Below, in pieces: positions 5,946-60,272 of a stretch of 64,000 nucleotides of DNA. The notes below the pieces were generated by a model. It was not told where the DNA came from. It was given only the letters and a program-made list of their open reading frames with translations, and did no database searches. Origin of the DNA: Candidatus Lloydbacteria bacterium RIFCSPHIGHO2_02_FULL_50_18 (GTDB taxonomy: Bacteria; Patescibacteriota; Minisyncoccia; Phycocordibacterales; UBA6899); contig MHLM01000014.1 of the NCBI GenBank assembly GCA_001821395.1, positions 174,381 to 238,380 of the forward strand. The letters are read 5' to 3'. Each line of letters opens with the position of its first letter. Position 1 is the stretch's first letter. The position numbers and the translations under genes are program-made.

Positions 5946-6001
5946 GAGATAGAGTATACCGTAATTGAGAAAAGAGAGAACAGACATGATACAATCTTTT
6001 T

Positions 6002-6238
6002 ATGTACGAGCCATCAAAACATCCGAACAATCCGTTGCACGGAAAAACGCTGCAGATGGTACTTGAGTATCTCCTTGAACAGTACGGCTGGGAGGAACTG
6101 GGAAAACGCATCAGTATCAAGTGCTTTATGTTGAATCCGAGTATCAAATCGAGTCTGACATTCTTGCGCAAGACCCCATGGGCACGGGAAAAAGTTGAAG
6201 GACTCTATTTGGAGACGGTTAGCAGGAATTATCAATGA
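6002..6238 (+). CDS. DUF2132 (VF530-like) small conserved protein
   Basis: 78 aa. '[31 protein letters not shown]...[13 protein letters not shown]' matches the DUF2132 family as I recall it. Confidence 0.55.
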
Positions 6239-6292
6239 TCCTCCTGCGGCGTTTGTGCACGGTGCTTGCATAAATAAAAAAAGTAGGAAAGA

Positions 6293-6622
6293 ATGGAGCA
6301 TATGTCAAAGAACCCAGGTGAATCGGTACCCGAGGAAGTCCCCAAAGCAAAGCGTGATATGACGAGTAAGCTCGATATTCTTAATACGCAGATCAATGGA
6401 CAACTCACTGAGGGGAACCCTGATGCGGAGCTTGATGTTGAAGATTGCGTCAGAGCGGCGGAAGATATGCTCGATCTCCTCGAGGCTGAAAACGCTGAGG
6501 GTCGCAAACCTTATAAGGATGATGTTGATGCGATCTTGAAGAAACTGAATACCGCGATCGCTATTTCCAACGAACCCTACGCGCGTGAATTGCGCAAGAG
6601 GCTTTTGATGCGATTTGGCTAG
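6293..6622 (+). CDS. hypothetical acidic protein upstream of sufB
   Basis: 109 aa, Asp/Glu-rich, no recognisable family. Confidence 0.4.
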   Translation: MEHMSKNPGESVPEEVPKAKRDMTSKLDILNTQINGQLTEGNPDAELDVEDCVRAAEDMLDLLEAENAEGRKPYKDDVDAILKKLNTAIAISNEPYARELRKRLLMRFG

Positions 6623-6770
6623 CAAGAATGATGACGATATTGAGGGGGATGTCCCTTTTAGTCTGCCGTCATTTTTCATTGGCGGTTGCCAGGCCACGAT
6701 GTCGCAACCCACTTTTCGGGGTGATTTCGGTTGCAAAATTACATTAAATCCGTATACTGTCAAGCACAAT

Positions 6771-8135
6771 ATGCCTAAAACAAATGCGGCAAAGAACAAT
6801 ACACTGAGCGATGTCGGACCGACGGAGGCGCTTGTTCGGCAGATATCCGCGACAAAAAAAGAGCCCGATTGGATGCTCGAGCTGCGTCTTCGCGCTCTTG
6901 CGCTATGGCGTGAGACAGCGATGCCGAACTGGGGACCTGATCTTTCCGGGCTCGACCTCGACGGGATGACCTACTATGCGGATCCGAACGTGAAAGAGAC
7001 TGACGACTGGAAAGAACTGCCGAAAGAGATCACCGATACATTCGAAAAATTGGGTATCCCGAAAGCGGAGCGGGATTACTTGGGAGGGGTTGGTGCACAA
7101 TTCGACTCAGGAATCGTTTACCATCGTATCCAAGACTCGCTCGCAAAGAAGGGGGTGATTTTTGAGAACATGGATGTCGCACTACAAAAGTATCCCGAAA
7201 TGGTGAAGGAGCATTTTATGACGAAGTGTGTTCCGATCAATGACCACAAGTTCATCATGCTTCACGCTGCCGTTTGGAGCGGTGGGACATTCATCTATGT
7301 GCCGAAGGGCGTGTCAGTCGAGCTTCCGCTCCAAGCATATTTTCGCATGAACAAAGCGCGCTCGGCGCAGTTTGAGCATACGCTCATCATCGCCGACGAA
7401 GGTTCCGAGATCACGTATATCGAGGGGTGTTCCGCGCCGCAATACACCGAGTCGTCACTCCATGCCGGTTGTGTAGAGCTATGGGTGAAGAAGAATGCGA
7501 AGATCAAATACATCAGCGTCGAGAACTGGTCCAAGAACACCTATAATTTGAATACAAAAAAAGCGCTCGTATTCGAGCGGGGACTTGTGGAGTGGGTGAA
7601 CGGAAATATGGGTTCGCGTGCGACAATGCTCTATCCCTCATCGGTCCTATTGGAACGCGGTGCGCGCTGTGAATCGCTCGGCATCGTGATGGCCAATGCG
7701 GGGCAGGTGCAAGACACGGGGTCGAAGGCGACACACGTTGGGCCCGAGACGGTTTCCGTCATTCGTTCGAAATCAGTTTCGAAGGGTGGGGGAGTGTCCA
7801 ATTATCGAGGAATTGTAAAAATTTTACCCGGTGCGACGGACGCACAGTCGAGCGTCTCATGTGATGCGCTCATCCTGGACGATCTTTCTATTTCAAACAC
7901 CTATCCGTCGATGAAAAACCAGAACGAAACCGCCGACCTTTCTCATGAAGCGCGTGTTGGACGTATTGGTGAAGAGGAAGTATTTTATTTACGCTCTCGC
8001 GGTTATTCGGAAGATGAAGCCCTCCGCCTCATCGTCGGGGGGTTCATGGAGCCGATCGTCAAAGCCCTTCCGCTCGAATATGCGGTAGAACTCAATAAAT
8101 TAATAGAATTAGAAATGGATAACAGTGTCGGATAA
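6771..8135 (+). CDS. sufB: Fe-S cluster assembly protein SufB
   Basis: Strong SufB similarity from '...EPDWMLELRLRALALW...' through the C-terminus. Start uncertain: the ORF track begins at a TTG (6615); in-frame ATGs are at 6699 and 6771. 6771 was chosen by alignment with typical SufB N-termini. Confidence 0.85.
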   Translation: MPKTNAAKNNTLSDVGPTEALVRQISATKKEPDWMLELRLRALALWRETAMPNWGPDLSGLDLDGMTYYADPNVKETDDWKELPKEITDTFEKLGIPKAERDYLGGVGAQFDSGIVYHRIQDSLAKKGVIFENMDVALQKYPEMVKEHFMTKCVPINDHKFIMLHAAVWSGGTFIYVPKGVSVELPLQAYFRMNKARSAQFEHTLIIADEGSEITYIEGCSAPQYTESSLHAGCVELWVKKNAKIKYISVENWSKNTYNLNTKKALVFERGLVEWVNGNMGSRATMLYPSSVLLERGARCESLGIVMANAGQVQDTGSKATHVGPETVSVIRSKSVSKGGGVSNYRGIVKILPGATDAQSSVSCDALILDDLSISNTYPSMKNQNETADLSHEARVGRIGEEEVFYLRSRGYSEDEALRLIVGGFMEPIVKALPLEYAVELNKLIELEMDNSVG

Positions 8136-27408: not shown

Positions 27409-30183
27409 ATGCGCCCACTCTCCGCAATCGCGCTACTTCTCTTCATGTTCGTATTTGTTCCCACCACCTCCTCAGCGATGATGATCTTCTATTTCCCTGT
27501 CCTGACGCCAAGTGAAGAGCTTGGATATGCGGGTGATGTGGTGAGTGATGGTGTCGAACCGAATACGAGTTCTGGCACACCATTCACATTTAAAATCATT
27601 TCTACCTCACATTACAATACGGCAAATGAGGTTGACCTCCTCGTCAGTGACGGAACGACAACTACTACATACATCATGCAGCGTGATCTCACCACCGCAT
27701 CAACGACACTTATCGATGGTGACTACATAAATGGGGAACAGTATTTCTATACCGGCACATTTCCCACAGGAAACTATACCTATCACTTCGAAACATTCGG
27801 TACCCAGTATCCTGAGATGGGGGAGGAGACATTTAGTGTGAGTGCCGGACCAGTGGATATTTGCGCGGGAGTCGAGAATTGCAACTCCAATGTGCTGTTT
27901 CTCCCCGGAATCATGGGCTCACGCCTGTTTGAAAATTCATTCGTCTGCGGAATACTTACCAATGAAAAAGAACGATGGGTTTCAACTTTGGATTGTGACC
28001 AGGCGCGCCTTGCACTTCGCGTAAATGGAACAAGTGTAAACCAAATATATACGAAAGAAGGGGAGGTTGGAGTCATCAATGAGGCCTATTCGTTCAACCT
28101 CTATAAATCATTTATGAGTGATTTGAAAAAGTGGAAGGAGACAGACAAGATCATCGCAGACTACGCCCTTATCCCCTATGACTGGCGCCTTTCACTTGAG
28201 GATGTTCTTCAAAATGGTGCGACTTCAACCGACGGAACATTTTCCTATGGCGCAAGCCAAGGATTTGCCAATTCCCATATCTACAGAAAGCTGACTGAGA
28301 TGGTCGCGTCGTCACGGACAAAGAAAGTTACCATTATCGCACACTCCAATGGCGGACTGGTGACCAAGGCTTTAATTCAGAAACTCAAAGAAACCCATGA
28401 CCCGCTTTATGACAAAATAGACAAGATCATATTCGTTGCAGTCCCTCAGACAGGAACACCTGAGGCAATAAGTAATATCCTCCATGGCGATCAGATCGGC
28501 CCCATGGGTTCGATTATGAGTGCCAATCGCCTTCGTGACCTTACACAAAACATGCCGGGAGCATACCACCTCCTACCCTCCGCAGCATATTTCGCAGGAG
28601 AAGGCGCAACTGTCCCTACGCCCATTGTCACGTTTGAGGATGGTACTGCAACGCAGCCGTTCATCAATCTGTATGGACATTCAATCGCGAATGCGTCTGA
28701 CTTGAAACGCTTCTTGCTTGGTGAAGATGGGAGACCAACTCCGACATATGATGATCTCGAAGATCCCACAAAGCTTAATTTCGCCCTTCTTTCCTACGCC
28801 GAAAATCTGCATCAGCAACTCGACGATAACTGGGAAGTATCTTCGTCAACCAATATATATCAGATCGCGGGATGGGGTGTGGGAACACTCGCGAATATCA
28901 ACTATCGCACAGTGCCGCACTGTGACCGCGTGGATTCAGTGATTATTCAAGGTGCACGAAATATCTATTGTGGTCTCTGGGGGAGTCGTCTCACCTTTGA
29001 CCCCAACAAAGTGATTGATGGAGATGGTACCGTGGTGATGCCAAGTGCGCTTGCGATGAGTACGAGTTCGGATAAGGTGACGAGGTATTGGGTGGATTTG
29101 GATAGGTATGGGAAAAGTGGACTTTTTAACTCAACAATCAATCGTGTTCATAAAGATATTCTTGAGGTTCCACAGCTGTGTGATTTTATTCATAATATCA
29201 TTTCGTTTTCTCTGGACACACTTCCTGTATATATTTCAACCTCAACACCACCATCAACCAACTACACAGATCGCCTCACCTTCACGCTCCACTCCCCGCT
29301 CACCCTCGAATTCACCGACACCGAAGGTCGCCATGTTGGACCATCAACGAGCACTCCGGACACATTCGACTCAAATGTCCCAGGAGCAACATATGAGCGC
29401 TATGGAGAAGTGCGGCTTCTCTCAATCCCAAAGACTGCCACAGGTACCCTTACGCTTCATGGTGTTGCGTCCGGCTCCTTCACGCTCGATCTCGCAGAAG
29501 AGAACGGAAACATCACCATTGCAACAACATCATTTGAAGGAATCACCTCTGCGACAAGTACGGTGGTGACGATGACCATTGATCCCATATCATCTCCAAT
29601 CACAAACGGCATACTTACGGTAGACACGAATGGTGATGGTACCACCATCGAAATCCTCCACGCGCACGAAGGTGAAACAGTGTTTTCTGACACCACTCCT
29701 CCCGAGGCACGGATTGGCTTCAGTACCTCTACCCAGCAACTGCGAACAATTGGTCTCGATGTATCGCCGACCAATGCGTATAAAACCGCCACCACAACCA
29801 CGGTCATCGATAGTGTGGGAAATGTCACCATCATTCATTTTTCCTCATACAAAGCAGGAAATCACAGTATTAAGGCAAAAATAGACTCCATCAGTTATAA
29901 TGGGGTAGCAACCGTAGTGAGTGCTGAGCTTTCCTATAAGTGGAGCATGAACAAGAAGGGGGAATATACGATGTTTGCCGCATATATAAAAACAGCAACA
30001 GGAATAGTCGAATCTCATTACCGCCCCAAGAAGAATCAAACGATCATCATGACAAAGGCACAGGACTTCGACGATGAGGATAATGATGACGAGTGCGACA
30101 AAAGAGCGACAAGCTCAAAAGTATCTGGTATGGTCATCCCTGGATTGGTGACCAATCAGGGGAAGATTAACGTTAATTATTAG
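27409..30183 (+). CDS. large secreted LCAT/PGAP1-like alpha/beta-hydrolase (lipase/acyltransferase) with long Thr-rich C-terminal region
   Basis: 924 aa. Signal peptide 'MRPLSAIALLLFMFVFVPTTSSA', 'IPYDWRLS' (LCAT-family motif), 'IIAHSNGG' (GxSxG nucleophile). The C-terminal roughly 450 aa are Thr/Ser-rich beta-like repeats. Confidence 0.7.
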   Translation: MRPLSAIALLLFMFVFVPTTSSAMMIFYFPVLTPSEELGYAGDVVSDGVEPNTSSGTPFTFKIISTSHYNTANEVDLLVSDGTTTTTYIMQRDLTTASTTLIDGDYINGEQYFYTGTFPTGNYTYHFETFGTQYPEMGEETFSVSAGPVDICAGVENCNSNVLFLPGIMGSRLFENSFVCGILTNEKERWVSTLDCDQARLALRVNGTSVNQIYTKEGEVGVINEAYSFNLYKSFMSDLKKWKETDKIIADYALIPYDWRLSLEDVLQNGATSTDGTFSYGASQGFANSHIYRKLTEMVASSRTKKVTIIAHSNGGLVTKALIQKLKETHDPLYDKIDKIIFVAVPQTGTPEAISNILHGDQIGPMGSIMSANRLRDLTQNMPGAYHLLPSAAYFAGEGATVPTPIVTFEDGTATQPFINLYGHSIANASDLKRFLLGEDGRPTPTYDDLEDPTKLNFALLSYAENLHQQLDDNWEVSSSTNIYQIAGWGVGTLANINYRTVPHCDRVDSVIIQGARNIYCGLWGSRLTFDPNKVIDGDGTVVMPSALAMSTSSDKVTRYWVDLDRYGKSGLFNSTINRVHKDILEVPQLCDFIHNIISFSLDTLPVYISTSTPPSTNYTDRLTFTLHSPLTLEFTDTEGRHVGPSTSTPDTFDSNVPGATYERYGEVRLLSIPKTATGTLTLHGVASGSFTLDLAEENGNITIATTSFEGITSATSTVVTMTIDPISSPITNGILTVDTNGDGTTIEILHAHEGETVFSDTTPPEARIGFSTSTQQLRTIGLDVSPTNAYKTATTTTVIDSVGNVTIIHFSSYKAGNHSIKAKIDSISYNGVATVVSAELSYKWSMNKKGEYTMFAAYIKTATGIVESHYRPKKNQTIIMTKAQDFDDEDNDDECDKRATSSKVSGMVIPGLVTNQGKINVNY

Positions 30184-37828: not shown

Positions 37829-37885
37829 AATAATGATCGATGAATGGTATACTCTTTCCGTATTATTGACGGTAATTTTTTAATC

Positions 37886-38599
37886 ATGAATCAAACAACG
37901 TGGATCATTGGGGGTGGAGTTGTCATCGTGGCAATCGCCGCATTGCTCTATTTATCAAGCGGAAGCGGTACACCAAAGACTGAGCCGACAACCATTCCCG
38001 CAGCGGAAATAACGGTAGACGATAAACCTATCGCAACCTCAACTTCGGTTGAAGCCCCAACGGATATTACTCGAACATCACAAGGAAATATGGAACAAAA
38101 AACAAATGAATCAAGCAGTGCGACACTGCACACAAGCATGGGCGACATCACGCTTAAATTTTACGCGAGTGATGCGCCAAAGACGGTCGAAAACTTTCTC
38201 AAACTTGCACAGTCGGGTTTTTATGACGGCGTGAAGTTTCACCGCGTGATTAAAGGATTCATGATCCAGACCGGTGACCCGCTTTCAAAGGATGACACGA
38301 TGATGTCACGATGGGGCACCGGTGGACCGGGGTACCAGTTTGCCGATGAAATCGTGCCCGCGAGTGCGCTCTATCAGAAAGGGTACAAGCATGGTGTTCT
38401 TGCCATGGCGAACTCCGGAGCAAATACGAACGGAAGCCAGTTCTTCATTATGGCTGCCGATTATCCGCTTCCACCGCTCTACACGATCTTCGGGGAGGTG
38501 ACGAGTGGGCTACCCGTTGTTGATGCGATAGACGCGGTGCCGACGTCACAGGACCGACCGCTTACTTCCGTGGTTATCAAGTCAGTCGAAGTCAAATAG
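37886..38599 (+). CDS. peptidyl-prolyl cis-trans isomerase, cyclophilin type, membrane-anchored
   Basis: N-terminal TM and linker, then 'FHRVIKGFMIQTGDP', 'GTGGPGYQFADE', 'LAMANSGANTNGSQFFI'. Confidence 0.85.
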   Translation: MNQTTWIIGGGVVIVAIAALLYLSSGSGTPKTEPTTIPAAEITVDDKPIATSTSVEAPTDITRTSQGNMEQKTNESSSATLHTSMGDITLKFYASDAPKTVENFLKLAQSGFYDGVKFHRVIKGFMIQTGDPLSKDDTMMSRWGTGGPGYQFADEIVPASALYQKGYKHGVLAMANSGANTNGSQFFIMAADYPLPPLYTIFGEVTSGLPVVDAIDAVPTSQDRPLTSVVIKSVEVK

Positions 38600-39911: not shown

Positions 39912-41204
39912 TTAGTCGCCACGGTCAGTATCTGCGTCATGTTCGTTTTCCAGTACGTACGCAGTGATGGGCTTCTTGCCTCTTTCACTCAACTGTTCAT
40001 GATGTGTGTTGCTACGCAGTGCGGAATAGATCCCGCCGGTCAGTCGTTGAAAATCGATCGCCAGTGCCTGCAGCTGTTGCGCAGCTGCAGCGACCTGTTG
40101 ATTCGCGGCACTTTGTTGTTGTGCCGATGCGGAAAGCTGCTCGGAGCTTTCGGAATTTTGGACGGCAACGCTCGCGATCGCGTCCATGCTTTCCGCAATA
40201 TGCTTCACAAGCGTCGTTTGCTTCTCTGTTCGCTCGGAGATCTCTTTGATGCGCGCAGAGAGTTTCTGGATCGCGCCGGACATGTTTTGCAGATCGACGA
40301 GCGATTCGTTCACTACTTTTGCATTTTCGTCGGCGTGTTCGAGCCCCTTTTCTGCTGCGAGCACGGTGTCGCCTATTTGCAGTAGCATGATCTCAACTTG
40401 CCCCTTTATTTCTTCTGCTGCGCCGGCTGATTGCTCTGCAAGCTTTCGGATCTCGTCAGCGACGACGGAGAAACCTCGTCCCGCGTCTCCTGCACGTGCC
40501 GCTTCGATCGCGGCATTCAATGAAAGAAGGTTTGTTTGCTCGGCGATCTTTGTGATCGTATCAACAATGGTACGGATCTCACGAGAGCGGTTGCCTGTCG
40601 TACGTGCGATCACCGCGGTGTCGGTGGTCATTTTTCTGATCTGGTCGAGACTTTTTTGCGATTGCTCTCCCTTCGCACCTGCTTGTTGTGTGACCTGAGA
40701 GACTTCTTTCGCCATGAGTGATGCCTCCTCTGCGGTAACGAGCATTTCATGCGCTCCACCCGCCAGCTCAGCGATCGAGCGTGCGATAGACTCCGCTTGG
40801 GTCGATTGGGTCACGGCCCCTTGGGCAACTTGTTCTGCAATACCCGCATTGTTTTGCGCTGCTGCGGCGACCTGCTGGGATGTTGCGGCGAGCGATGATC
40901 CCGCTTGAGATATCTGGTCGCCTGCATTACGAAGCGGAATAAAAAGCCAGCGGAGGTTCATCGTTGCCAAAAAAAGCGAGAATGCCATGAGTCCGAGGAA
41001 AAGAATGAGCGCAATGCCAAAATTGAGTGCATGAGTGCCGTAGAGGTATCCTGTGAATGCGACCAAGATGATCGGCACAACGATGCCGAATAGGAGTTGT
41101 ATCGTCACCTTGCGCGCACCGGTTGCACTGGTGAAAAATGAGCTTACTGTTGCCATTTGTTCATCATAGCAGATAGCGCGATTGTCTGCTTTCTGTTTAT
41201 GCAC
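39912..41204 (-). CDS. methyl-accepting chemotaxis protein (short, 2 TM)
   Basis: Highly conserved MCP signalling region '[34 protein letters not shown]'. Start ambiguous (GTG at 41204 or ATG at 41156). Confidence 0.8.
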
Positions 41205-50328: not shown

Positions 50329-50961
50329 ATGTTCATCCGAAAGCTTACGCTCGATGAGGTTGTGTATTGGGGTATACTCTTTTTCGCCTCTATCGCGGCA
50401 GGGTACACGCTCATTACGCTCATTCATATATCCTTGCGCGAGGAAACTGCTTTTTCGCAAACGACATACATGAAAAGTATGGCAAAGTTCGTGATCGTTG
50501 AAACATCATTCGGGGAGATCCGCATTGCACTGCTTCGTTCGCAGGCACCGGTCACATCGAATAATTTCGTTTCCTTAGTACAGGCGGGGTTCTATGACAA
50601 CATAAAGTTTCACCGCGTCGTGAAAGGAATGCTTGTACAGGGTGGAGATCCGCTTTCTCGCGAAAATGACCGCGATCTTTACGGCACCGGAGGACCGGGT
50701 TATGTTTTTGATGACGAGATACGTGGTCAACAAATGGAGCGTGGTGTCGTGGCGATGGCGAATCTCGGAAGGCCAAAAACGAACGGAAGCCAGTTCTTTA
50801 TTCTTGTCGCGCCCGATGCTCCGCTTATGGCCGGCAAGTATACGATTTTTGGGAAAGTCGTTTCAGGTATGGATGTTGTTGATCGTATCAATAGTGTTAC
50901 CGTCGACGCACGCAATATTCCCATTGACCCGGTAGTCATCCATTCAATGGATGCCGAATAA
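50329..50961 (+). CDS. peptidyl-prolyl cis-trans isomerase, cyclophilin type (second copy), membrane-anchored
   Basis: 'FHRVVKGMLVQGGDP', 'GTGGPGYVFDDE', 'VAMANLGRPKTNGSQFFI'. Confidence 0.85.
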   Translation: MFIRKLTLDEVVYWGILFFASIAAGYTLITLIHISLREETAFSQTTYMKSMAKFVIVETSFGEIRIALLRSQAPVTSNNFVSLVQAGFYDNIKFHRVVKGMLVQGGDPLSRENDRDLYGTGGPGYVFDDEIRGQQMERGVVAMANLGRPKTNGSQFFILVAPDAPLMAGKYTIFGKVVSGMDVVDRINSVTVDARNIPIDPVVIHSMDAE

Positions 50962-51002: not shown

Positions 51003-51908
51003 TCAGTGAATGCGAGATATTTTTTGTTGGTCACCCCTCCGAAAATCTTCGTATGACATTTCTTTTTTACCCTCCGGTGTGACGCGTGTGATCGTGAGCA
51101 CTCCGTTCTCGATGGTGGCGTCATTGATACGGACGCGAATATTCTTTCCGTTCCGGACGGTAGTGAAAAAGGCGCCCGGCCATTCATCAAAGGCGCGGAT
51201 CTTTTTATAATTCTTGAGCGGATCTTCAGTAAGATCGATAAGGCCGTCTTCTTTTTTTATCTTCGCGGTGAATGTTGCTTGCGCATGGTCCTGCTCGTGC
51301 GCCCTAGGTTCATTCATCCATTCGGGGATGGTTTTCGCGAGGAGTGCCCCGCCAAAATGGGCGAGGTCGCGCGTGAGCATACTTCCTCTTGGCGGCCAAT
51401 CTGTGACGATCCGTTCTCGTTGCGCCACGATCGGGCCGTGGTCCATTTCGGGGTCGAGTTGCATGATCGTGACTCCGGTGTGCCCACCTGAATGCGTACA
51501 CGCGTGGGCAGGAGTTTCATCGGAGAGGATGACAGACTCGATCGGGGATGGTCCGCGAAATTTCGGCAGGAGCGACGGGTGGACATTGAGCACGCCATGG
51601 GCGGGGATGTCGAGGATCGTCTTTGGGATCAATTTTCCGTATGCCGCAACAATAAAAAGGTCAGAGTGATACCACTCCATGATCTCCTTGAATGCCTCGT
51701 CGCGTAATGTTTTTGGTGTGAGTACTGGAATTTCGCGTGTTTCTCCCCATACTTTTGCTTCGCTTGACGTAAGAATCAGCTTGCGGCCCCTGGGTGCATC
51801 GGGAGAGGTGACGATCACGGTCGGTAAAAAACCCTTCTCGGCGAGTTCCTCGAGAATGATCACTGCAAACTCTGGCGTTCCAAAGAATGCAAAGCGCGGT
51901 TTCATCAT
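51003..51908 (-). CDS. fmt: methionyl-tRNA formyltransferase
   Basis: 'FFGTPEFAV', 'NVHPSLLPKFRGPSPI' SLLP motif, C-terminal Fmt domain. Confidence 0.9.
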   Translation of the reverse strand: MMKPRFAFFGTPEFAVIILEELAEKGFLPTVIVTSPDAPRGRKLILTSSEAKVWGETREIPVLTPKTLRDEAFKEIMEWYHSDLFIVAAYGKLIPKTILDIPAHGVLNVHPSLLPKFRGPSPIESVILSDETPAHACTHSGGHTGVTIMQLDPEMDHGPIVAQRERIVTDWPPRGSMLTRDLAHFGGALLAKTIPEWMNEPRAHEQDHAQATFTAKIKKEDGLIDLTEDPLKNYKKIRAFDEWPGAFFTTVRNGKNIRVRINDATIENGVLTITRVTPEGKKEMSYEDFRRGDQQKISRIH

Positions 51909-51909
51909 G

Positions 51910-52512
51910 TTATCGCTTACCGCTTTTTGCTTGTATCTCGGCGATCTCTTTTGGGGTCAGCTCTTCGATCTCGGTGGCATGGTCGACAAAGAGGGTACCA
52001 TTGAGGTGGTCCGTCTCATGCTGGAATATTTGCGCGACCAGTCCGGAGCCTCCATAGGTAAAGACCTTGCCGTATTCATCGTACGCGCGGATCATCGCTT
52101 TTTCATGACGTAGCGTGTTGCCATAATACCAACGCACCGAAAGGCATCCCTCAGGGACTTTTACTTTTTTACGGGATACTTTGATGATCTCCGGATTGAT
52201 GCAGACCATGTTCTTTTCCGGCATCACGGGTGCATCCACTTCCGTATCTTCCGCCTTTATCTTTCCATCTTCGTTTATCGCAAAGGCTTTTCGTGAAACG
52301 ATGAAAATGCGCAGCGACACCCCGATCTGTGGGGCAGCAATGGCAACACCGTCAAATTCCGCCTCAAGCGCGGAATTCATCGCATCAAGAATGTTGTTTA
52401 GCTGTTTCGTTCCGAATTCACTCTTCGCGACAGACGCCGCATGTGCACGAAGCACGGGGTCTCCCTGCTGAACGATATCACTTGCAACATTTTTATTGTT
52501 ACTTTCTTTCAT
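51910..52512 (-). CDS. def: peptide deformylase
   Basis: 'GVAIAAPQIG' (motif 1), 'EGCLS' (motif 2), 'HETDHLNG' (motif 3). Stop abuts the fmt start. Confidence 0.9.
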   Translation of the reverse strand: MKESNNKNVASDIVQQGDPVLRAHAASVAKSEFGTKQLNNILDAMNSALEAEFDGVAIAAPQIGVSLRIFIVSRKAFAINEDGKIKAEDTEVDAPVMPEKNMVCINPEIIKVSRKKVKVPEGCLSVRWYYGNTLRHEKAMIRAYDEYGKVFTYGGSGLVAQIFQHETDHLNGTLFVDHATEIEELTPKEIAEIQAKSGKR

Positions 52513-52708: not shown

Positions 52709-54640
52709 CTAAATCACTGATTCGGGATTGACCCTAACCTCGATCTCGGTCGGAAGCGCTCGAATGAGACCGAGCAGTTCTTCATCAGGCCATCCGCCTG
52801 CCTGCCCTGGCAGGCCTCGCGGGATCTTAAGGAGCGCATTCATTCGGAACTTGCCTTTTACGCGCGCGATGAAAGAAGGAAAAGTGACCGGGTGGTACGC
52901 ACCGAATATTTTTTCGATCTCCTGCATAGCCACTTCCCCCTCACCCTTTTTGCCTTCATGGGTAAATTTGATCAGGGTCGAAAATGGCGGATAGTGCAAT
53001 TGGTTGCGCGCATCGAGCTCTGTGCGAAGAAATTCACCGATATTTCCCGATGTCGCAAGTTCGAACAGCGGCACATCGGTATCGCGTGTTTGAATGAGAA
53101 AATGCTCGCTCGCTTTTTCGCGCAGAAGGAGGAGTAATCTGAAGACGCGTTCGCCCATGCGAAAGTCGGGAATAGTGAGCAGGGAATTGACCGAGAGAAC
53201 GGCGACGGTCGCGACGGGTTCCGTAAGATAGGGGATAGCCATCTCAGTGCCGATGAGAATACTCCCCGGAGTTTGGTAGAACTCGCGCATGATGCGTAGT
53301 GCATCAGCGTGTTTTTTGACGACGTCTTTGTCTATGCGAAAGATGTGCGCATCGGGGAATCGGTTGCGAATGGATTCCTCCGCTTGTGCAACGCCGATGC
53401 CGAGCGGCGTGAGTCTCCACCCGCCGCAGTGCGTACACACACGATCCGTATCTCGTTCGTATCCACAGCGATGGCAGAGAAAGATATTGTGTTCGCCATC
53501 GCCGTCTTTTTGAGAACCGTTCTTTTTATGGAGCACCATCGGTGCCGAGCAGCGTTCACAGGAAACCACCGTCGCACAATCGCCGCATACGGTCATCGGC
53601 GCGAATCCGCGTCGCACACCCATGACGAAACAGTGCTTACCCTTCTTCTGCACGTCTTCAATGAGATCGACGAGTTCCGGAGAGGCGATAGCGATGCGAC
53701 CGGTCGCGGGCTGCTCACCGAGCGTGCGCATGTCGACGATGTGCTGCGCGGCGGTCGATGGGAGTCGATATTTGGGACGCACGAATTCCTCGAGCTCGCC
53801 CCGTTCCTTCCTATAGAGCGTTTCCGTGCGCAGAAAGAGGTCGCCATAGATAATATCCGCTCCGATCGCCTTTGCGAATTCCTCGGCAAACACACGTAAG
53901 TCGAGAAATGGTCTCGACTGAAGCGTATATGCGCCCGCACTTTCCCGGTCAAGGATGATGCTTTCGATATCATAACGCGGTATCGACAGAAAAAGCGGTG
54001 TCCCTATGATGAGCACGGGGTGGGTCATCGTGGTGATCTTTTCCCATCGTGACTCGAGCTCTTTCTTTGTCAGTCCTCCGTGCAGGATGAATGTATATTC
54101 TTTGATGCCTTTTTCGAGTGAGGCATAGGTGTGTTCAATGTCCTGAATTGACGGTAGCACAAAATAACATGATGCTCCGCGCGCGAACACTTCGCGGATA
54201 TGACTTTTGTATGTGGTGTACCGTTCATGTTCGTCCGCCTGAAAGATCATTCGTTCGCTTCTGCGTTTTGGTCTCTCTGTTGCTGGAACGTTCGCACCTG
54301 CTTTTTTTGAAAGGACCAGCGCGCTCGGGAACGCCGAGTGGATCACGGCGCCTGTCGATGCGGCGAAATATCTTCCGGTCTTCTCGCACGCCTCGATGAA
54401 CTCCTTGCGAAAGAAATTCTTGGCATGCACGCTGTCGAGTTTTTTGATGGCGAATTGTGCGCGCTTGATGTCGGCCTTCATCTCATGTGCGGGGGCACAG
54501 CGGATCACGAGTGCCGGAGTGAGTCTGCCGCGCATCGGCACCGTGACGAGTGCACCTGGCAACACTTCATCTTTTGTGAAGTAGGAAAGCTCATCAATGG
54601 GTATTCCTCGCTTTATTGGTGCAACCGTAATGATATACAT
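52709..54640 (-). CDS. priA: primosomal protein N' (PriA) homolog lacking canonical Walker A/B
   Basis: N-terminal 3'-DNA-binding and winged-helix region, and the Cys-rich Zn-binding region (CGDC...CERC...CHRCG...CTHCGG), are conserved. The position expected for GxGKT reads 'QADEHERYTTY', and the DExH position reads 'ILDRES'. Confidence 0.8.
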   Translation of the reverse strand: MYIITVAPIKRGIPIDELSYFTKDEVLPGALVTVPMRGRLTPALVIRCAPAHEMKADIKRAQFAIKKLDSVHAKNFFRKEFIEACEKTGRYFAASTGAVIHSAFPSALVLSKKAGANVPATERPKRRSERMIFQADEHERYTTYKSHIREVFARGASCYFVLPSIQDIEHTYASLEKGIKEYTFILHGGLTKKELESRWEKITTMTHPVLIIGTPLFLSIPRYDIESIILDRESAGAYTLQSRPFLDLRVFAEEFAKAIGADIIYGDLFLRTETLYRKERGELEEFVRPKYRLPSTAAQHIVDMRTLGEQPATGRIAIASPELVDLIEDVQKKGKHCFVMGVRRGFAPMTVCGDCATVVSCERCSAPMVLHKKNGSQKDGDGEHNIFLCHRCGYERDTDRVCTHCGGWRLTPLGIGVAQAEESIRNRFPDAHIFRIDKDVVKKHADALRIMREFYQTPGSILIGTEMAIPYLTEPVATVAVLSVNSLLTIPDFRMGERVFRLLLLLREKASEHFLIQTRDTDVPLFELATSGNIGEFLRTELDARNQLHYPPFSTLIKFTHEGKKGEGEVAMQEIEKIFGAYHPVTFPSFIARVKGKFRMNALLKIPRGLPGQAGGWPDEELLGLIRALPTEIEVRVNPESVI

Positions 54641-54778: not shown

Positions 54779-55519
54779 ATGCAAACGCATGAGACAGACC
54801 ATACTCCGGCTACACCGGAACAGCTTGCGATCCTCACGGGTGAGATCGCTCTTGCAGTTGCGAAAGCAAAGCCATCATTTGCTCGCATTCAGAAACTGCT
54901 TGGGAGTAAGAGTGCAACGCGGAAGAGTATTTCCACTGCCGTACTTTCCGCGCTCGAGATTGACAGTGCCCCAGACCCTCGCCTTGTGAAGAGCCAAAGG
55001 CTTTGGGCGAAGCTTGGGTTACCACTTGATTGCCTCGACGACCTCGTTATGCCGGACATTCCGACCGATTGGGATGGTGTCGCCATCATTCCGGAGGTTT
55101 CGTGCGAAAGGCTCTTCGCTCTTTGCGTGAAGCACTTCCCATCGTGGAAGTACGGCAACAACCTCGATAACTTCAAGGAAGAGCAGAATCGCCCGAGTCG
55201 CGCCTACGCCCTCGGTCATCGTGGTGGCGTCGAGCCTGACGTCCTGCATCGCGGCAAGAGCTACAACCAATGCATCGAGGAAGGACTCATCTTCCTGACG
55301 CAGAAGGAGCGCATCTGTATCGAGCTCCTCCGCTTTGCCGAAACGGGAGAGCATCTCGATGTGGTGGGTCTCACCATCACGTCTTCGCTTGCGGAGGTCG
55401 GCCATGCGTATTACGCGCACTTGGACTCGAGCTTTCGGACGCAAGTGTTTCGCATGGGCTTTTGCCGTCGCATGTGCGCCGATTCGGCGGGCGGACCTCG
55501 TCAAGCAGTTTTTGCTTAA
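54779..55519 (+). CDS. hypothetical protein
   Basis: 246 aa, followed by a strong plus-strand terminator; the overlapping minus-strand ORF was rejected. Confidence 0.45.
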   Translation: MQTHETDHTPATPEQLAILTGEIALAVAKAKPSFARIQKLLGSKSATRKSISTAVLSALEIDSAPDPRLVKSQRLWAKLGLPLDCLDDLVMPDIPTDWDGVAIIPEVSCERLFALCVKHFPSWKYGNNLDNFKEEQNRPSRAYALGHRGGVEPDVLHRGKSYNQCIEEGLIFLTQKERICIELLRFAETGEHLDVVGLTITSSLAEVGHAYYAHLDSSFRTQVFRMGFCRRMCADSAGGPRQAVFA

Positions 55520-57365: not shown

Positions 57366-57450
57366 GATGATTTCCCATAAGCAAATTCTTTCCTTACGTT
57401 ACTCATCTTGGCCCCCTTCGTCAAACCGCGTTCTTATACACTGAACATCA

Positions 57451-57479
57451 TTGTCAAAAGTGCCAATGCTTCATACAAT
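57451..57479 (+). promoter_or_regulatory. sigma-70-like promoter TTGTCA-17-TACAAT, apparently leaderless
   Basis: The -10 ends 3 nt before ATG 57483 (second ATG at 57489), so the predicted TSS is at or next to the start codon. Confidence 0.5.
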
Positions 57480-57482
57480 GAT

Positions 57483-60272
57483 ATGCATATGCTCACCCCA
57501 GAACTTTTGGAATTCATTCGCGCGCAACAGGAAGCAGGAATGTCGAGAGAAGAGGTCGAACGGTTACTTCTTACAGAGGGGGGGTGGACAAAATCAGACG
57601 TAGATCAGGCCTTTCGCTCACTTGCTCAGGCTAAAGAGCCACCCGCTTTATCCTCAGTCGCTCTGCCCGAAGAGCCTGTGATGTCTCAGCCTTCGTCGGT
57701 CACTATCACACCGCTCATCGAAGGAGTGACGCCGACTTCGGCTGTTAGCGTGGAAGCTTTTCCTGCTATGGCCCCAGTGATTCAGACTCCCGCAGTCCCG
57801 GTCGAAGCGACGGTGGCACTCGCCAAACAAGAGGAGTTTACACCTTTTGTTCCCGTGATGATCACCACCCCCACGCCCGGCATTCCTCAAGAAGCTCCCG
57901 CAGTGGTTACGATCGAGCAGCAAGTCCCGTCTCTTCTCGTCGTGCAAGAACCATTCCTTGCTTCACCGATAATAGCGAAAGAGGAACCTTATATATTTGT
58001 TGGATCGGAAAATCCTACCCCTGCTCCTCTGGTGTCGGCAGTGTCTCCGGTAGAGGAGGCTCCGATCACCGTCGATGATGAAAGTCACGTTGTTTCTGTT
58101 CCTCCGGCAGATGATTTTCTTGGGTTATTCGGTTCGCTCAAGTCGTCATCCTGGCAGAATCATTCAGCAGAACATGCGCCGGTCATCTCTCCTTCGCCAT
58201 TGCCCTTCCGAGAGGTTGAGACTCCTGCATCAAAGCCGCAGGGGAGTTCGATCAGCGACATTCTTCTCGGTGGTGTTGCCCCCAAAGTTGAGAGTGCTGA
58301 AGTCCAACCCACTTCACCTTTTGTGCTTGCACCCGTTGTGCCGAGCGTTCCCTCGGAGCCCGACGTTCTTCGGAATGCGCCGTCCCCGTTTGCACCGCTG
58401 TATCAGACAAAAGCGGGAGAGGAGCCCGCCTCGGTGTTCAAATTTGATTTTGCAAAGATGCGGAGTGTTCCCCTCGAGCAAACGGGGACTCCGGCCGCGG
58501 CGGGACTGACGACGGAAGCTAGTCCGCTCGATGTTTCTCAGTTGTTAAAGACTGAGTCTAAGGACGAGTCTATGAGCATGCCAATCCCCGGAACCCCGAG
58601 CGCTCACGAGACCGGCAGTGAACTGAGTGCACCAGCCGGACGGCGTACGATGGCGGGTGATCTTCTTTTGCAGGGACTTGTTCCTCCATCACCGTCCGGA
58701 TCAACGCCGGTCATTCCATCGCCCATCACCCCTGTTTCCGTTCCTGCGGTACCGTCTATTGAGGGTCATGAGGAAAAGTCTCAAATAACAAGCATGCCGG
58801 TCAATGTTTTTGGTGCTCCGCTCGCGGAAGAGATTAAAAGAAAGAATACCGTCAAGCGCTTGCTCGGGCTTGCGATCGGCGGCATCGTGTTACTCACGGT
58901 GATCGGTGGTGCAATCTTCTTGGTGCTCAAGTTTCGCGCTCCCGATATTCAGATGATTGCATCGGGCGCGTTTGGGAAGTTCTTTGATGCAACGTCTTTT
59001 TCCTATAAAGGGAAAGGATCGGCTGACCTGCTCTTATCAACTGCAACCGGTGGAGCAGAGCAGACTGGTATTGTTAAGTTTGATATCGATTATGAAGGAT
59101 CACTCGACAATGGCCCCTTAGGATATGGTAATGGTGCACACCGCATCAAGCTCGCCGGCGGACTTCAGTCCGGTGATTTTTCATGGCCGGCATACCTCGA
59201 TGCAGATATGCGTATCTTTGATTCATCACTCTATTTCCATCTTCTCTCTTTGCCTCCCGACACAAATCTTGATCCGGAATTGGTCAGGTCATACTGGATA
59301 AAGGTCAATCTTTCCGAGATCGCAAAGGAGCTTGCGTTGTCAGGCATGGCGGCTGCACAGGAAGGATACGGTGATTTTGGCGGACAGATCAAAGACAACA
59401 ATTTTAATGCCATGTTAAAAAAACATGCCCCGTTTGAGGTATCCGAGCAGTTACCTGACGATGTGATCAATGGGGTTGCAGTTGAACACTTTAAAATGAA
59501 AGCGAACGGAGAAGCGATGTTGCAGTTCACTACGGATGTGTACAAAAGATCCTTCGGTAAAGACCTCGTGCTCACTGACGACAAACATATTCGCCTCCGA
59601 GACGGATTGGCGAAGATGGTTGGGGAAATATGGACCAATAAAGATACCGGGGAGCTCATTCAAGTGAGTATCTCAGGAGATCTTGATGATGATATGTTCG
59701 ATGTCCACGTGAGGGGAAGAGTGAGCCTATTCTTCGGATTTTTCGATCTCAATAAACCGGTCGCAGTTGATGTTCCGTCACCTACGCTTACGCTCGAAGA
59801 ACTTAAAGCGCAGATGGATCAGTATCAACGATTGAAAGAAGTTCGCTCGCGCGATGCGGAGAAGGTCGCTCGACTGAGTGGGATCCTGCGTTCACTCGAC
59901 GCCTATAAGGAAGCAAAGGGGAGATTCCCGACTGCATTAAATGAAATGTACGGAGCAGGGATAATTGCCTCTTCATCAATACCAACACAGATATTAAGTC
60001 AGTATGAGTATGAGTCCTATGTCGGCAAGTCTGTTTTACTAAAGGCGAATCGTTGTTCACTAAAGGGAAAAGTCTGTGCGTTTTATCATATCGGAACAAA
60101 CCTCGAAGAAGTGGAGAACGCGTTGCTCTCGACCGACGCCGATATCATTGGCGACGTGCGGGGTGCCGATACTGCAGGCTGTATCGGTGAAAAAGGTTTT
60201 GCGTGTTATGACGTGGTCACACCCGTTACCGGAACGTCCACTCCAGAGACCCCCGTTAGCCAGATCAAGTAG
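57483..60272 (+). CDS. large Pro/Thr/Ser-rich single-pass membrane protein with extracytoplasmic C-terminal domain
   Basis: About 930 aa: small N-terminal helical domain, roughly 450 aa low-complexity P/S/T/V-rich linker, TM 'LLGLAIGGIVLLTVIGGAIFLVL', roughly 450 aa C-terminal domain with Cys pairs. Start per the leaderless promoter; the ORF-track start at 57408 lies upstream of the promoter. Confidence 0.6.
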   Translation: MHMLTPELLEFIRAQQEAGMSREEVERLLLTEGGWTKSDVDQAFRSLAQAKEPPALSSVALPEEPVMSQPSSVTITPLIEGVTPTSAVSVEAFPAMAPVIQTPAVPVEATVALAKQEEFTPFVPVMITTPTPGIPQEAPAVVTIEQQVPSLLVVQEPFLASPIIAKEEPYIFVGSENPTPAPLVSAVSPVEEAPITVDDESHVVSVPPADDFLGLFGSLKSSSWQNHSAEHAPVISPSPLPFREVETPASKPQGSSISDILLGGVAPKVESAEVQPTSPFVLAPVVPSVPSEPDVLRNAPSPFAPLYQTKAGEEPASVFKFDFAKMRSVPLEQTGTPAAAGLTTEASPLDVSQLLKTESKDESMSMPIPGTPSAHETGSELSAPAGRRTMAGDLLLQGLVPPSPSGSTPVIPSPITPVSVPAVPSIEGHEEKSQITSMPVNVFGAPLAEEIKRKNTVKRLLGLAIGGIVLLTVIGGAIFLVLKFRAPDIQMIASGAFGKFFDATSFSYKGKGSADLLLSTATGGAEQTGIVKFDIDYEGSLDNGPLGYGNGAHRIKLAGGLQSGDFSWPAYLDADMRIFDSSLYFHLLSLPPDTNLDPELVRSYWIKVNLSEIAKELALSGMAAAQEGYGDFGGQIKDNNFNAMLKKHAPFEVSEQLPDDVINGVAVEHFKMKANGEAMLQFTTDVYKRSFGKDLVLTDDKHIRLRDGLAKMVGEIWTNKDTGELIQVSISGDLDDDMFDVHVRGRVSLFFGFFDLNKPVAVDVPSPTLTLEELKAQMDQYQRLKEVRSRDAEKVARLSGILRSLDAYKEAKGRFPTALNEMYGAGIIASSSIPTQILSQYEYESYVGKSVLLKANRCSLKGKVCAFYHIGTNLEEVENALLSTDADIIGDVRGADTAGCIGEKGFACYDVVTPVTGTSTPETPVSQIK

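Follow-up and report, generated by a model that had tools for sequence, protein, structure and literature searches.

This study concerns a priA-like gene of Candidatus Lloydbacteria bacterium RIFCSPHIGHO2_02_FULL_50_18, a member of the Patescibacteria, carried on a 64,000-nucleotide stretch of contig MHLM01000014.1 (NCBI GenBank assembly GCA_001821395.1, positions 174,381 to 238,380 of the forward strand). The whole of this stretch is referred to as the window, and coordinates are those of the window unless another locus is named. The gene (52709..54640, minus strand) is an ATG-start open reading frame (ORF) specifying a protein of 643 aa, and is followed on the same strand by def (peptide deformylase, 51910..52512; Pfam PF01327, E 8e-40) and, downstream of def, by fmt (methionyl-tRNA formyltransferase, 51003..51908; Pfam PF00551 and PF02911). 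An initial annotation, made from the sequence without database searches, had described the product as a PriA homologue with degenerate helicase motifs, encoded upstream of def-fmt, and had reasoned that a naturally ATPase- and helicase-dead PriA would have to act only as a scaffold or loader in replication restart, or be complemented by another helicase. The gene order was as described, and the evidence set out below points to a PriA pseudohelicase.

The assignment to PriA is supported by both sequence and structural comparison. The NCBIfam model TIGR00595 (priA) matched the protein with 219.7 bits (E 6e-65), narrowly missing its equivalog cutoff of 230.35, and the NF0040xx equivalogs all scored far under their own cutoffs. 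Identity to E. coli PriA was about 24%, and a sequence search against the PDB recovered PriA chains 4nl4, 6dgd, 6dcr, and 8fak (E 9e-37 to 6e-34). AlphaFold2, given an alignment of 70 sequences, produced a model with a predicted local distance difference test (pLDDT) of 89.4 and a predicted template modelling score (pTM) of 0.89; a model from the single sequence reached a pLDDT of 33 and was discarded. When the former was submitted to Foldseek, the best PDB matches were all PriA (E 2e-38 to 1e-26; template modelling (TM) score 0.66-0.76), with those to 8fak, 6dcr, 6dgd, and 4nl4 at E 1e-38 to 1e-33 and TM 0.73-0.76, and the next family, Mfd, appeared only at E 3e-8. One of the best TM-scores was that of 6dcr, an E. 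coli PriA protein from which the winged helix has been deleted.

The model shows the full architecture of PriA with the exception of the winged helix. The sole Pfam match over threshold was to the 3' DNA-binding domain (3'BD; PF17764, 23.7 bits, cutoff 22.7), at residues 1-105 (54326..54640), which was modelled at a pLDDT of about 83-96 and was covered by the PriA structural matches. Its residue Y20 aligned with Tyr18 of the E. coli 3'-end pocket and is 100% conserved in the family, and other well-conserved positions in the domain are L18 (99%), G29 (99%), R37 (94%), and K55 (93%). A short linker (residues 106-129; 54254..54325) follows where E. coli PriA has its winged helix, the alignment showing a gap opposite E. 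coli residues ~109-181, and the winged-helix model PF21213, present in E. coli PriA, gave no match in the query. As canonical PriAs of Patescibacteria also lack this domain, PriA cannot be defined by it in every case. The two RecA-like lobes, delimited by the AlphaFold2 model and Foldseek, comprise residues 130-300 (lobe 1, predicted to be ATPase-dead; 53741..54253) and 301-545 (lobe 2; 53006..53740), and the PriA-typical stretches RRGFAP and PDFRMGER (DFRxxER) are kept in lobe 2. Lobe 2 also carries the cysteine-rich region (CRR; residues 346-412, 53405..53605), with four CxxC pairs and a partial match to PF18319; its eight cysteines (C352, C355, C361, C364, C389, C392, C402, and C405) do not vary among the 70 aligned sequences. 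The C-terminal, S10-like domain (residues 546-643, 52712..53005) matched PF18074 weakly (13.6 bits, under the cutoff), but was confidently modelled and lies within the full-length PriA structural alignments. All of these segments are on the minus strand. The PriA-like N-terminal region, Cys4-Cys4 zinc region, and C-terminal domain claimed in the initial annotation are therefore borne out by the PF17764 match, the invariant cysteines, and the structural matches.

Within the cysteine-rich region, the loop that joins the second CxxC pair to the third (residues 368-384, 53489-53539) is hypervariable, ranging from 7 to 82 residues in the family. It has 16 residues in the query, with pLDDT < 50 at residues 375-382, and in some relatives (P0078, P0080, P0081, P0087, and P0094) it carries Pro/Thr/Glu-rich insertions totalling about 60 residues.

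The helicase motifs present a different picture. A Pfam scan of the query returned no DEAD, ResIII, Helicase_C, or winged-helix match, whereas the E. coli PriA control matched all of them. P-loop NTPases carry a glycine-rich loop at the strand-helix point of motif I. When residues were counted backwards from two conserved landmarks, the end of helix 1 and the strand after it (E. coli G245/P253 = query G155/P163), a gapless register resulted, in which E. coli G224-V-T-G-S-G-K230-T-E-V-Y corresponds to query Q134-A-D-E-H-E-R140-Y-T-T-Y; a 4-residue gap introduced into this region by MAFFT --auto was an alignment artefact. The former motif I (Walker A) is thus QADEHERYTTY (residues 134-144, 54209..54241) in place of GVTGSGKTEVY, with all three P-loop glycines replaced, R140 at the position of E. 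coli K230, and acidic residues at D136, E137, and E139, and in the model the strand 130-134 is separated by only two loop residues from a helix at 137-153. The former motif II (Walker B) reads DRES (residues 231-234, 53939..53950) for canonical DEEH, and a HMMER alignment to Klebsiella PriA, which begins right after the Walker A box, likewise pairs IILDRES with VVIDEEHD. The manual alignment behind the initial annotation was therefore correct, the motifs being absent rather than shifted.

The loss extends further than had been noted at first, as motifs III and VI are also gone (GSATP to GDLFL in the case of motif III), in addition to the winged helix. The alignments place the former motif III at residues 266-271 (GDLFLR for canonical GSATPA; 53828..53845) and the former motif VI at residues 500-511 (53108..53143), where FRLLLLLREKAS stands against canonical YTQVAGRAGRAGKQG with a 5-residue deletion; over the core of this motif, canonical QVAGRAGRAGKQG is matched by LLLREKAS, so that GRAGR has become LREKA. 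Motif V is retained (ILIGTEM, residues 461-467, 53240..53260; ILIGTQM in E. coli). All five motif positions are on the minus strand, as is the gene. On these grounds, the protein is predicted to lack ATPase activity and ATP-dependent 3'-5' helicase activity.

Missing motifs and, in one relative, a split gene could be taken as signs of a sequencing or assembly error or of a decaying pseudogene. Neither a GxGK[ST] nor a DExH string was found in the three minus-strand frames when the gene was read together with 300 nt of flank at either end, which means that no frameshift can bring back Walker A or DExH, and the rescue by frameshift that the initial annotation had allowed for does not apply. The identical 643-aa protein occurs on 14 contigs of independent assemblies (NCBI GCA_001818945.1, ENA ERZ4903055, Logan SRR3989338/SRR2090153). 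Among 80 related species genomes the priA-like ORF was uninterrupted in 79, and in 77 of those it was full-length. In comparison with L007, the nearest relative at the species level (92% aa identity), the proportion of synonymous differences (pS) was 0.67, near saturation, and that of nonsynonymous differences (pN) was 0.039, giving a dN/dS of ~0.023 for the whole gene; lobe 1, the lobe with the lost Walker motifs, was the most constrained region (dN/dS 0.011). Against the frame analysis, the independent contigs, the uninterrupted ORFs, and a dN/dS of around 0.02 at saturated synonymous sites, error or decay can be given next to no weight. The split gene belongs to Patescibacteria group bacterium UBA6023 (L020, 6001-7906), where overlapping ORFs are found at 6001-7302 and 7136-7906, and this represents either a frameshift error of the metagenome-assembled genome or a real disruption in one species.

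The degenerate form is not peculiar to one genome. A first homologue search gave 120 relatives at 41-92% identity among the matches listed, and an exhaustive search of 50%-identity representatives gave, again among the matches listed, 150 relatives at 35-75% identity, all with E < 1e-125. When 266 family proteins were tested against four canonical motif patterns, 246 matched none and 20 matched one only, and GR[AS]GR was absent from all 266. The Walker-A-like or DExH-like strings picked up in those 20 relatives did not, with one exception, fall in the motif columns ('FARGKS', for instance, is where helix 1 ends) and were rejected. The exception, P0201, keeps DEEH at motif II but has replaced motifs I, III, and VI (QAGDDDR, GSFLLR, and no GRAGR), which hints at a relic of stepwise loss. 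Altogether, the loss was common to 272/272 relatives examined (29-88% identity). A scan with family-specific peptide patterns, using one genome per GTDB species, found relatives of this form encoded in at least 541 species genomes, and the informative record names among them were Candidatus Lloydbacteria, Candidatus Taylorbacteria, and Parcubacteria group. The survey thus shows the loss to be clade-wide.

Public record labels were unreliable as to group for many loci of the species scan (L010, L017, and L025 among them). Contigs labelled 'uncultured Candidatus Saccharibacteria' carry PriAs 64-68% identical to the Lloydbacteria protein (68% for L010), and the NCBI taxonomy now treats 'Candidatus Paceibacterota' as synonymous with the entire phylum Minisyncoccota. 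Because the Saccharibacteria and Paceibacterota labels are unreliable, they were not used for any claim of taxonomic breadth.

Conservation within the family, measured on a 273-sequence alignment of the query and the 272 relatives, was high at the very positions where the canonical residues had been lost. In the former motif I, Q134 is conserved at 96%, [ED]139 at 96%, R140 at 100%, and Y144 at 97%. The former motif II has the consensus [DE]-[RKH]-E-[SN], with E233 at 97%, and the former motif III has the consensus G/A-D-x-x-L-R, with D267 at 93%, L270 at 92%, and R271 at 88%, while the motif VI region is mostly LREKA across the family. The former ATP site is, then, not decayed, but has been replaced by differently conserved charged residues that are under strong purifying selection. 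In superfamily II helicases, the positions of motifs I, II, III, and VI line the cleft between the lobes. It may be hypothesized that the basic residues R140, [RKH]232, R271, and R507 pair with the acidic residues [ED]139, [DE]231, E233, and D267 in a salt-bridge network that takes the place of the nucleotide, and a cleft rebuilt in this way would fix the two lobes in a single, nucleotide-independent conformation.

An invariant arginine at the Walker A lysine position, together with conserved acidic residues at positions 1 and 3 of motif II, might also be read as the marks of a cryptically active enzyme, one that binds or hydrolyses nucleotide via non-canonical residues such as R140 or R507, and the literature on E. 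coli PriA includes discussion of a second, weaker site for nucleotide (PMC5778457). This is very improbable given the state of the site: none of the P-loop glycines is left, the acidic segment is modelled as a helix with only two loop residues, the catalytic Glu of DExH has become Arg, Lys, or His, the arginine finger region of motif VI is deleted or replaced, and in E. coli PriA the K230R substitution is by itself enough to abolish ATPase activity (PMC4504706, PMC5778457).

Canonical PriAs were sought in metagenomes with the patterns G[VI]TGSGKTE and [IV]DEEH[DE]x[ST][YF], which are not matched by the motif-deficient family and had been derived from a synthetic alignment, consisting of the query given canonical motifs together with random rows. 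Matches were ranked by similarity to the query, and a follow-up homologue search was seeded with the best of them. The canonical PriAs nearest to the family hidden Markov model (L087, L111, L096, and L090) were of 655-665 aa, lacked the winged helix, and came from low-GC contigs. That of L087 (P0284) was identical to the NCBI primosomal protein N' of Candidatus Torokbacteria CG_4_10_14_0_2_um_filter_35_8, and its nearest relatives include records labelled Patescibacteria group and Parcubacteria group. These proteins all matched Pfam DEAD, ResIII, and Helicase_C and had recognisable canonical motifs, and one labelled 'Parcubacteria group' (P0286) carries GSGKT, DEEH, GSAT, and GRxGR, all four. 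Canonical PriA therefore persists elsewhere in the Patescibacteria. The canonical Patescibacteria PriAs were 41-53% identical to PriAs of Firmicutes. The Torokbacteria protein (L087, 3671-5668) reads EVTGSGKT at motif I, with Glu for the first Walker A glycine, and its GSGKT, DEEH, GSAT, and GRTGR are intact.

The relationship of the two forms was explored by identity comparison and a neighbour-joining tree, both over 615 well-aligned columns. Mean identity within the motif-deficient family was 38%, and its members shared only 18-26% identity with any canonical PriA, whereas the canonical Patescibacteria PriAs were 34-48% identical to those of Clostridia, Omnitrophica, NPL-UPA2, and E. coli. 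In the tree, the family formed one clade in 100/100 bootstraps, on a long stem beside the canonical Patescibacteria PriAs, although with neighbour-joining on so long a branch the exact sister group has to be taken with caution. Monophyly with full bootstrap support on a long stem suggests that ATPase activity was lost once, and that the loss has a single origin within the Patescibacteria. The simplest history would be a single loss of ATPase activity from a canonical PriA without a winged helix, in an ancestor of some of the Parcubacteria, followed by rapid change of the protein and then by strong constraint ever since. The tree contains no Deinococcus-Thermus sequence, and the position of the family next to the canonical Patescibacteria PriAs argues for a loss independent of that in Deinococcus-Thermus, a group with its own ATPase-dead PriA (see below).

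The genomic context of the gene bears on whether it is the PriA of its organism. Among the 80 related loci, def was found downstream of the priA-like gene in 57 and fmt in 56, and the conserved neighbours were murA and mreB upstream, and def, fmt, cyclophilin, and hpf downstream. Since canonical Patescibacteria loci show the same downstream synteny (priA-fmt with no def between in L087, and priA-def-fmt in L096), the motif-deficient gene is a positional orthologue, not an added paralogue. PriA is normally single-copy. Neither the 64-kb window nor the sequence flanking the gene in the 80 related loci (918 kb in all) contained a second PriA-like ORF, no compensating helicase was found in the window, and no conserved neighbouring helicase was found around the priA-like gene in the 80 loci. 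A scan for promoters and terminators gave nothing beyond shuffled expectation.

As the scans for PriA covered the window and related loci, a canonical PriA could be encoded elsewhere in the genomes, in which case the gene studied here would be a degenerate duplicate with an accessory role. Such an arrangement is improbable, because the gene fills the canonical priA-def-fmt slot, it is under strong purifying selection, PriA is ordinarily present once, no second copy appeared in the sequence scanned, and in the tree the motif-deficient clade replaces the canonical PriAs of the Candidate Phyla Radiation (CPR) rather than accompanying them.

The most useful guides to function are ATPase-dead PriAs that have been studied directly. 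PriA of Deinococcus radiodurans has no ATPase or helicase activity, yet binds single-stranded DNA, forks, and DnaB (Lopper, Boone & Morrow 2015, PMC4504706), so the idea of an ATPase-dead PriA is not new in kind. In E. coli, the priA300 (K230R) mutant is nearly wild type in behaviour (PMC5778457), and K230A PriA supports DnaB loading in vitro and is routinely used in reconstitution of loading (PMC10175261). These engineered E. coli forms, which still assemble primosomes and load DnaB via the PriA-PriB route, provide a functional model for the present family, although each carries just one substitution in a protein that is canonical in all other respects, and they rely on PriB and DnaT.

By analogy with these proteins, and given the conserved DNA-binding modules (the 3'BD with Y20, the CRR, and the C-terminal domain), we consider it likely that the protein is the organism's PriA orthologue turned pseudohelicase, serving as an ATP-independent scaffold on which forks are recognised and the helicase is loaded. 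The 3'BD, RecA-like lobes, zinc-binding CRR, and C-terminal domain that it keeps would recognise abandoned forks and D-loops, binding branched DNA without ATP, possibly together with SSB, and the protein would then act as a platform for recruiting and reloading the replicative helicase, DnaB, directly or via an adaptor, while the lagging-strand arm would not be unwound by the protein itself. The retention of fork binding and the direct or adaptor-mediated loading of DnaB are both suggested by what the Deinococcus and E. coli proteins can do. The scaffold or loader role put forward in the initial annotation is accordingly the explanation best supported by the motif loss and by the ATPase-dead precedents, in so far as function can be predicted from them.

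Several points weigh against this assignment. In E. coli, the PriA-PriC route, unlike the PriA-PriB route, depends on helicase activity (PMC5778457), and for this reason some fork types may be unusable for a PriA that cannot unwind DNA. The Asp17 of the E. coli 3'-end pocket is Ser or Thr in the motif-deficient family and, taken with the 18-26% identity to canonical PriAs, this leaves room for functional divergence. Lastly, the searches for helicases and for a second PriA extended over the window and the related loci, so that a second PriA, RecG or Rep/PcrA could be encoded elsewhere.

Divergence might have gone as far as neofunctionalisation, in which the PriA scaffold kept its fold and perhaps its binding of branched DNA, lost its role in replication restart, and now binds another ligand or partner in the cleft. 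The very long stem, with far lower identity to canonical PriAs than these show among themselves across phyla, would fit such a history, as would the new set of invariant residues in the old ATP site, the missing winged helix, and the replaced pocket Asp. We nevertheless regard it as unlikely, as the gene occupies the orthologous priA-def-fmt slot that canonical Patescibacteria PriA also uses, all DNA-binding modules and the eight-cysteine CRR are retained and conserved, no other PriA was present in the window or the 918 kb of related loci, and a protein of 640 aa without a core function is rarely kept by small genomes.

A more specific proposal, which we put forward tentatively and which is on balance doubtful, is that a single ancestral loss left at least 541 species without a PriA ATPase, and that the charge network either locks the loader-recruiting lobes or makes a new site for a partner or ligand, with DnaB being reloaded without adaptors. 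In the lobe-locking version, the network would hold the protein in the conformation that binds the fork and recruits the loader. In the adaptor-free version, reloading would be an ATP-independent process that requires PriA only, with no PriB, DnaT, PriC, or DnaD-type adaptors.

Comparison with known PriAs shows what is shared and what is distinctive. The motif-deficient family and the canonical PriAs of E. coli and K. pneumoniae (4NL4, 6DGD, 6DCR, 8FAK) have in common the domain order (3'BD, lobe 1, lobe 2 with CRR, C-terminal domain), the eight-cysteine zinc region, motif V, RRGFAP, DFRxxER, and the priA-def-fmt context, but the family lacks motifs I, II, III, and VI as well as the winged helix. 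The canonical PriAs of other Patescibacteria, such as P0284 (Torokbacteria) and P0286 ('Parcubacteria group'), come from its phylum-level group, are of ~650-670 aa, have no winged helix, lie upstream of (def-)fmt, and are its nearest canonical neighbours in the tree, but these keep GSGKT, DEEH, GSAT, and GRxGR and are only 19-26% identical to it. The Deinococcus-Thermus PriAs resemble it in having degenerate Walker A and B motifs, with the Walker A Lys changed to Arg (R140 here), and in being retained as functional proteins. Judged by the published text on the Deinococcus protein, degeneration has gone further in the present family, which has none of the P-loop glycines left and has replaced motifs III and VI as well. 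The lineage appears unrelated, and the protein is much shorter (643 aa) and without a winged helix. Full-text searches of the literature found no report tying loss of PriA motifs to Patescibacteria, CPR, or Parcubacteria. A PriA pseudohelicase is thus a kind already known from Deinococcus-Thermus, and the Parcubacteria case appears to be a new one, with a probably independent origin and what seems to be a far larger radiation.

Other genes of the window deserve brief mention. A 246-aa ORF (54779-55519, plus strand) between the priA-like gene and murA was considered as a partner and rejected, having no Pfam match and no counterpart in the 80 loci; it occurs only on contigs with the identical PriA (L082, L083), and is overlapped by a 205-aa antisense ORF. 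At 57408-60272 (plus strand) is a gene for a 954-aa protein with no Pfam match, in which a long N-terminal half rich in Pro, Val, Ser, and Ala is accompanied by a hydrophobic segment and a C-terminal domain, and relatives of it are found upstream of the priA-like gene, between murA and mreB, in 16 of the 80 loci. Two cyclophilin-type peptidyl-prolyl isomerase paralogues (50329-50961 and 37844-38599, both plus strand) lie within 13 kb of each other; each has an N-terminal extension, and the 50329-50961 protein has a hydrophobic, signal-like segment. The 924-aa protein encoded at 27409-30183 (plus strand) matched only an LCAT-like lipase/acyltransferase domain (PF02450) and DUF7379, and may be a lipase that is secreted and bears on an epibiotic way of life. 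The minus strand encodes, at 39912-41204, a 430-aa protein that matched the methyl-accepting chemotaxis (MCPsignal) domain (E 8e-36). Its presence was unexpected in a Parcubacteria-type genome, these being generally described as without motility and chemotaxis systems, and no other chemotaxis genes were found among the window ORFs scanned.

The finding has consequences for annotation as well as for the understanding of PriA. Because the proteins narrowly miss the TIGR00595 equivalog cutoff, their annotations vary between "hypothetical protein" and "primosomal protein N' (superfamily II helicase)", and both labels would be inaccurate for a PriA of this form. After Deinococcus-Thermus, the Parcubacteria would represent a second exception to PriA as an active helicase, one that arose independently and takes in many more species, and in which the ATP site has been rebuilt and conserved, not merely mutated. 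This supports the view that the essential job of PriA is structure-specific fork recognition and helicase loading, with unwinding being dispensable. The hundreds of motif-deficient sequences, set beside their canonical sister lineages, constitute a natural experiment that may reveal which surfaces are needed for the scaffold, and how replication restart operates in minimal genomes.

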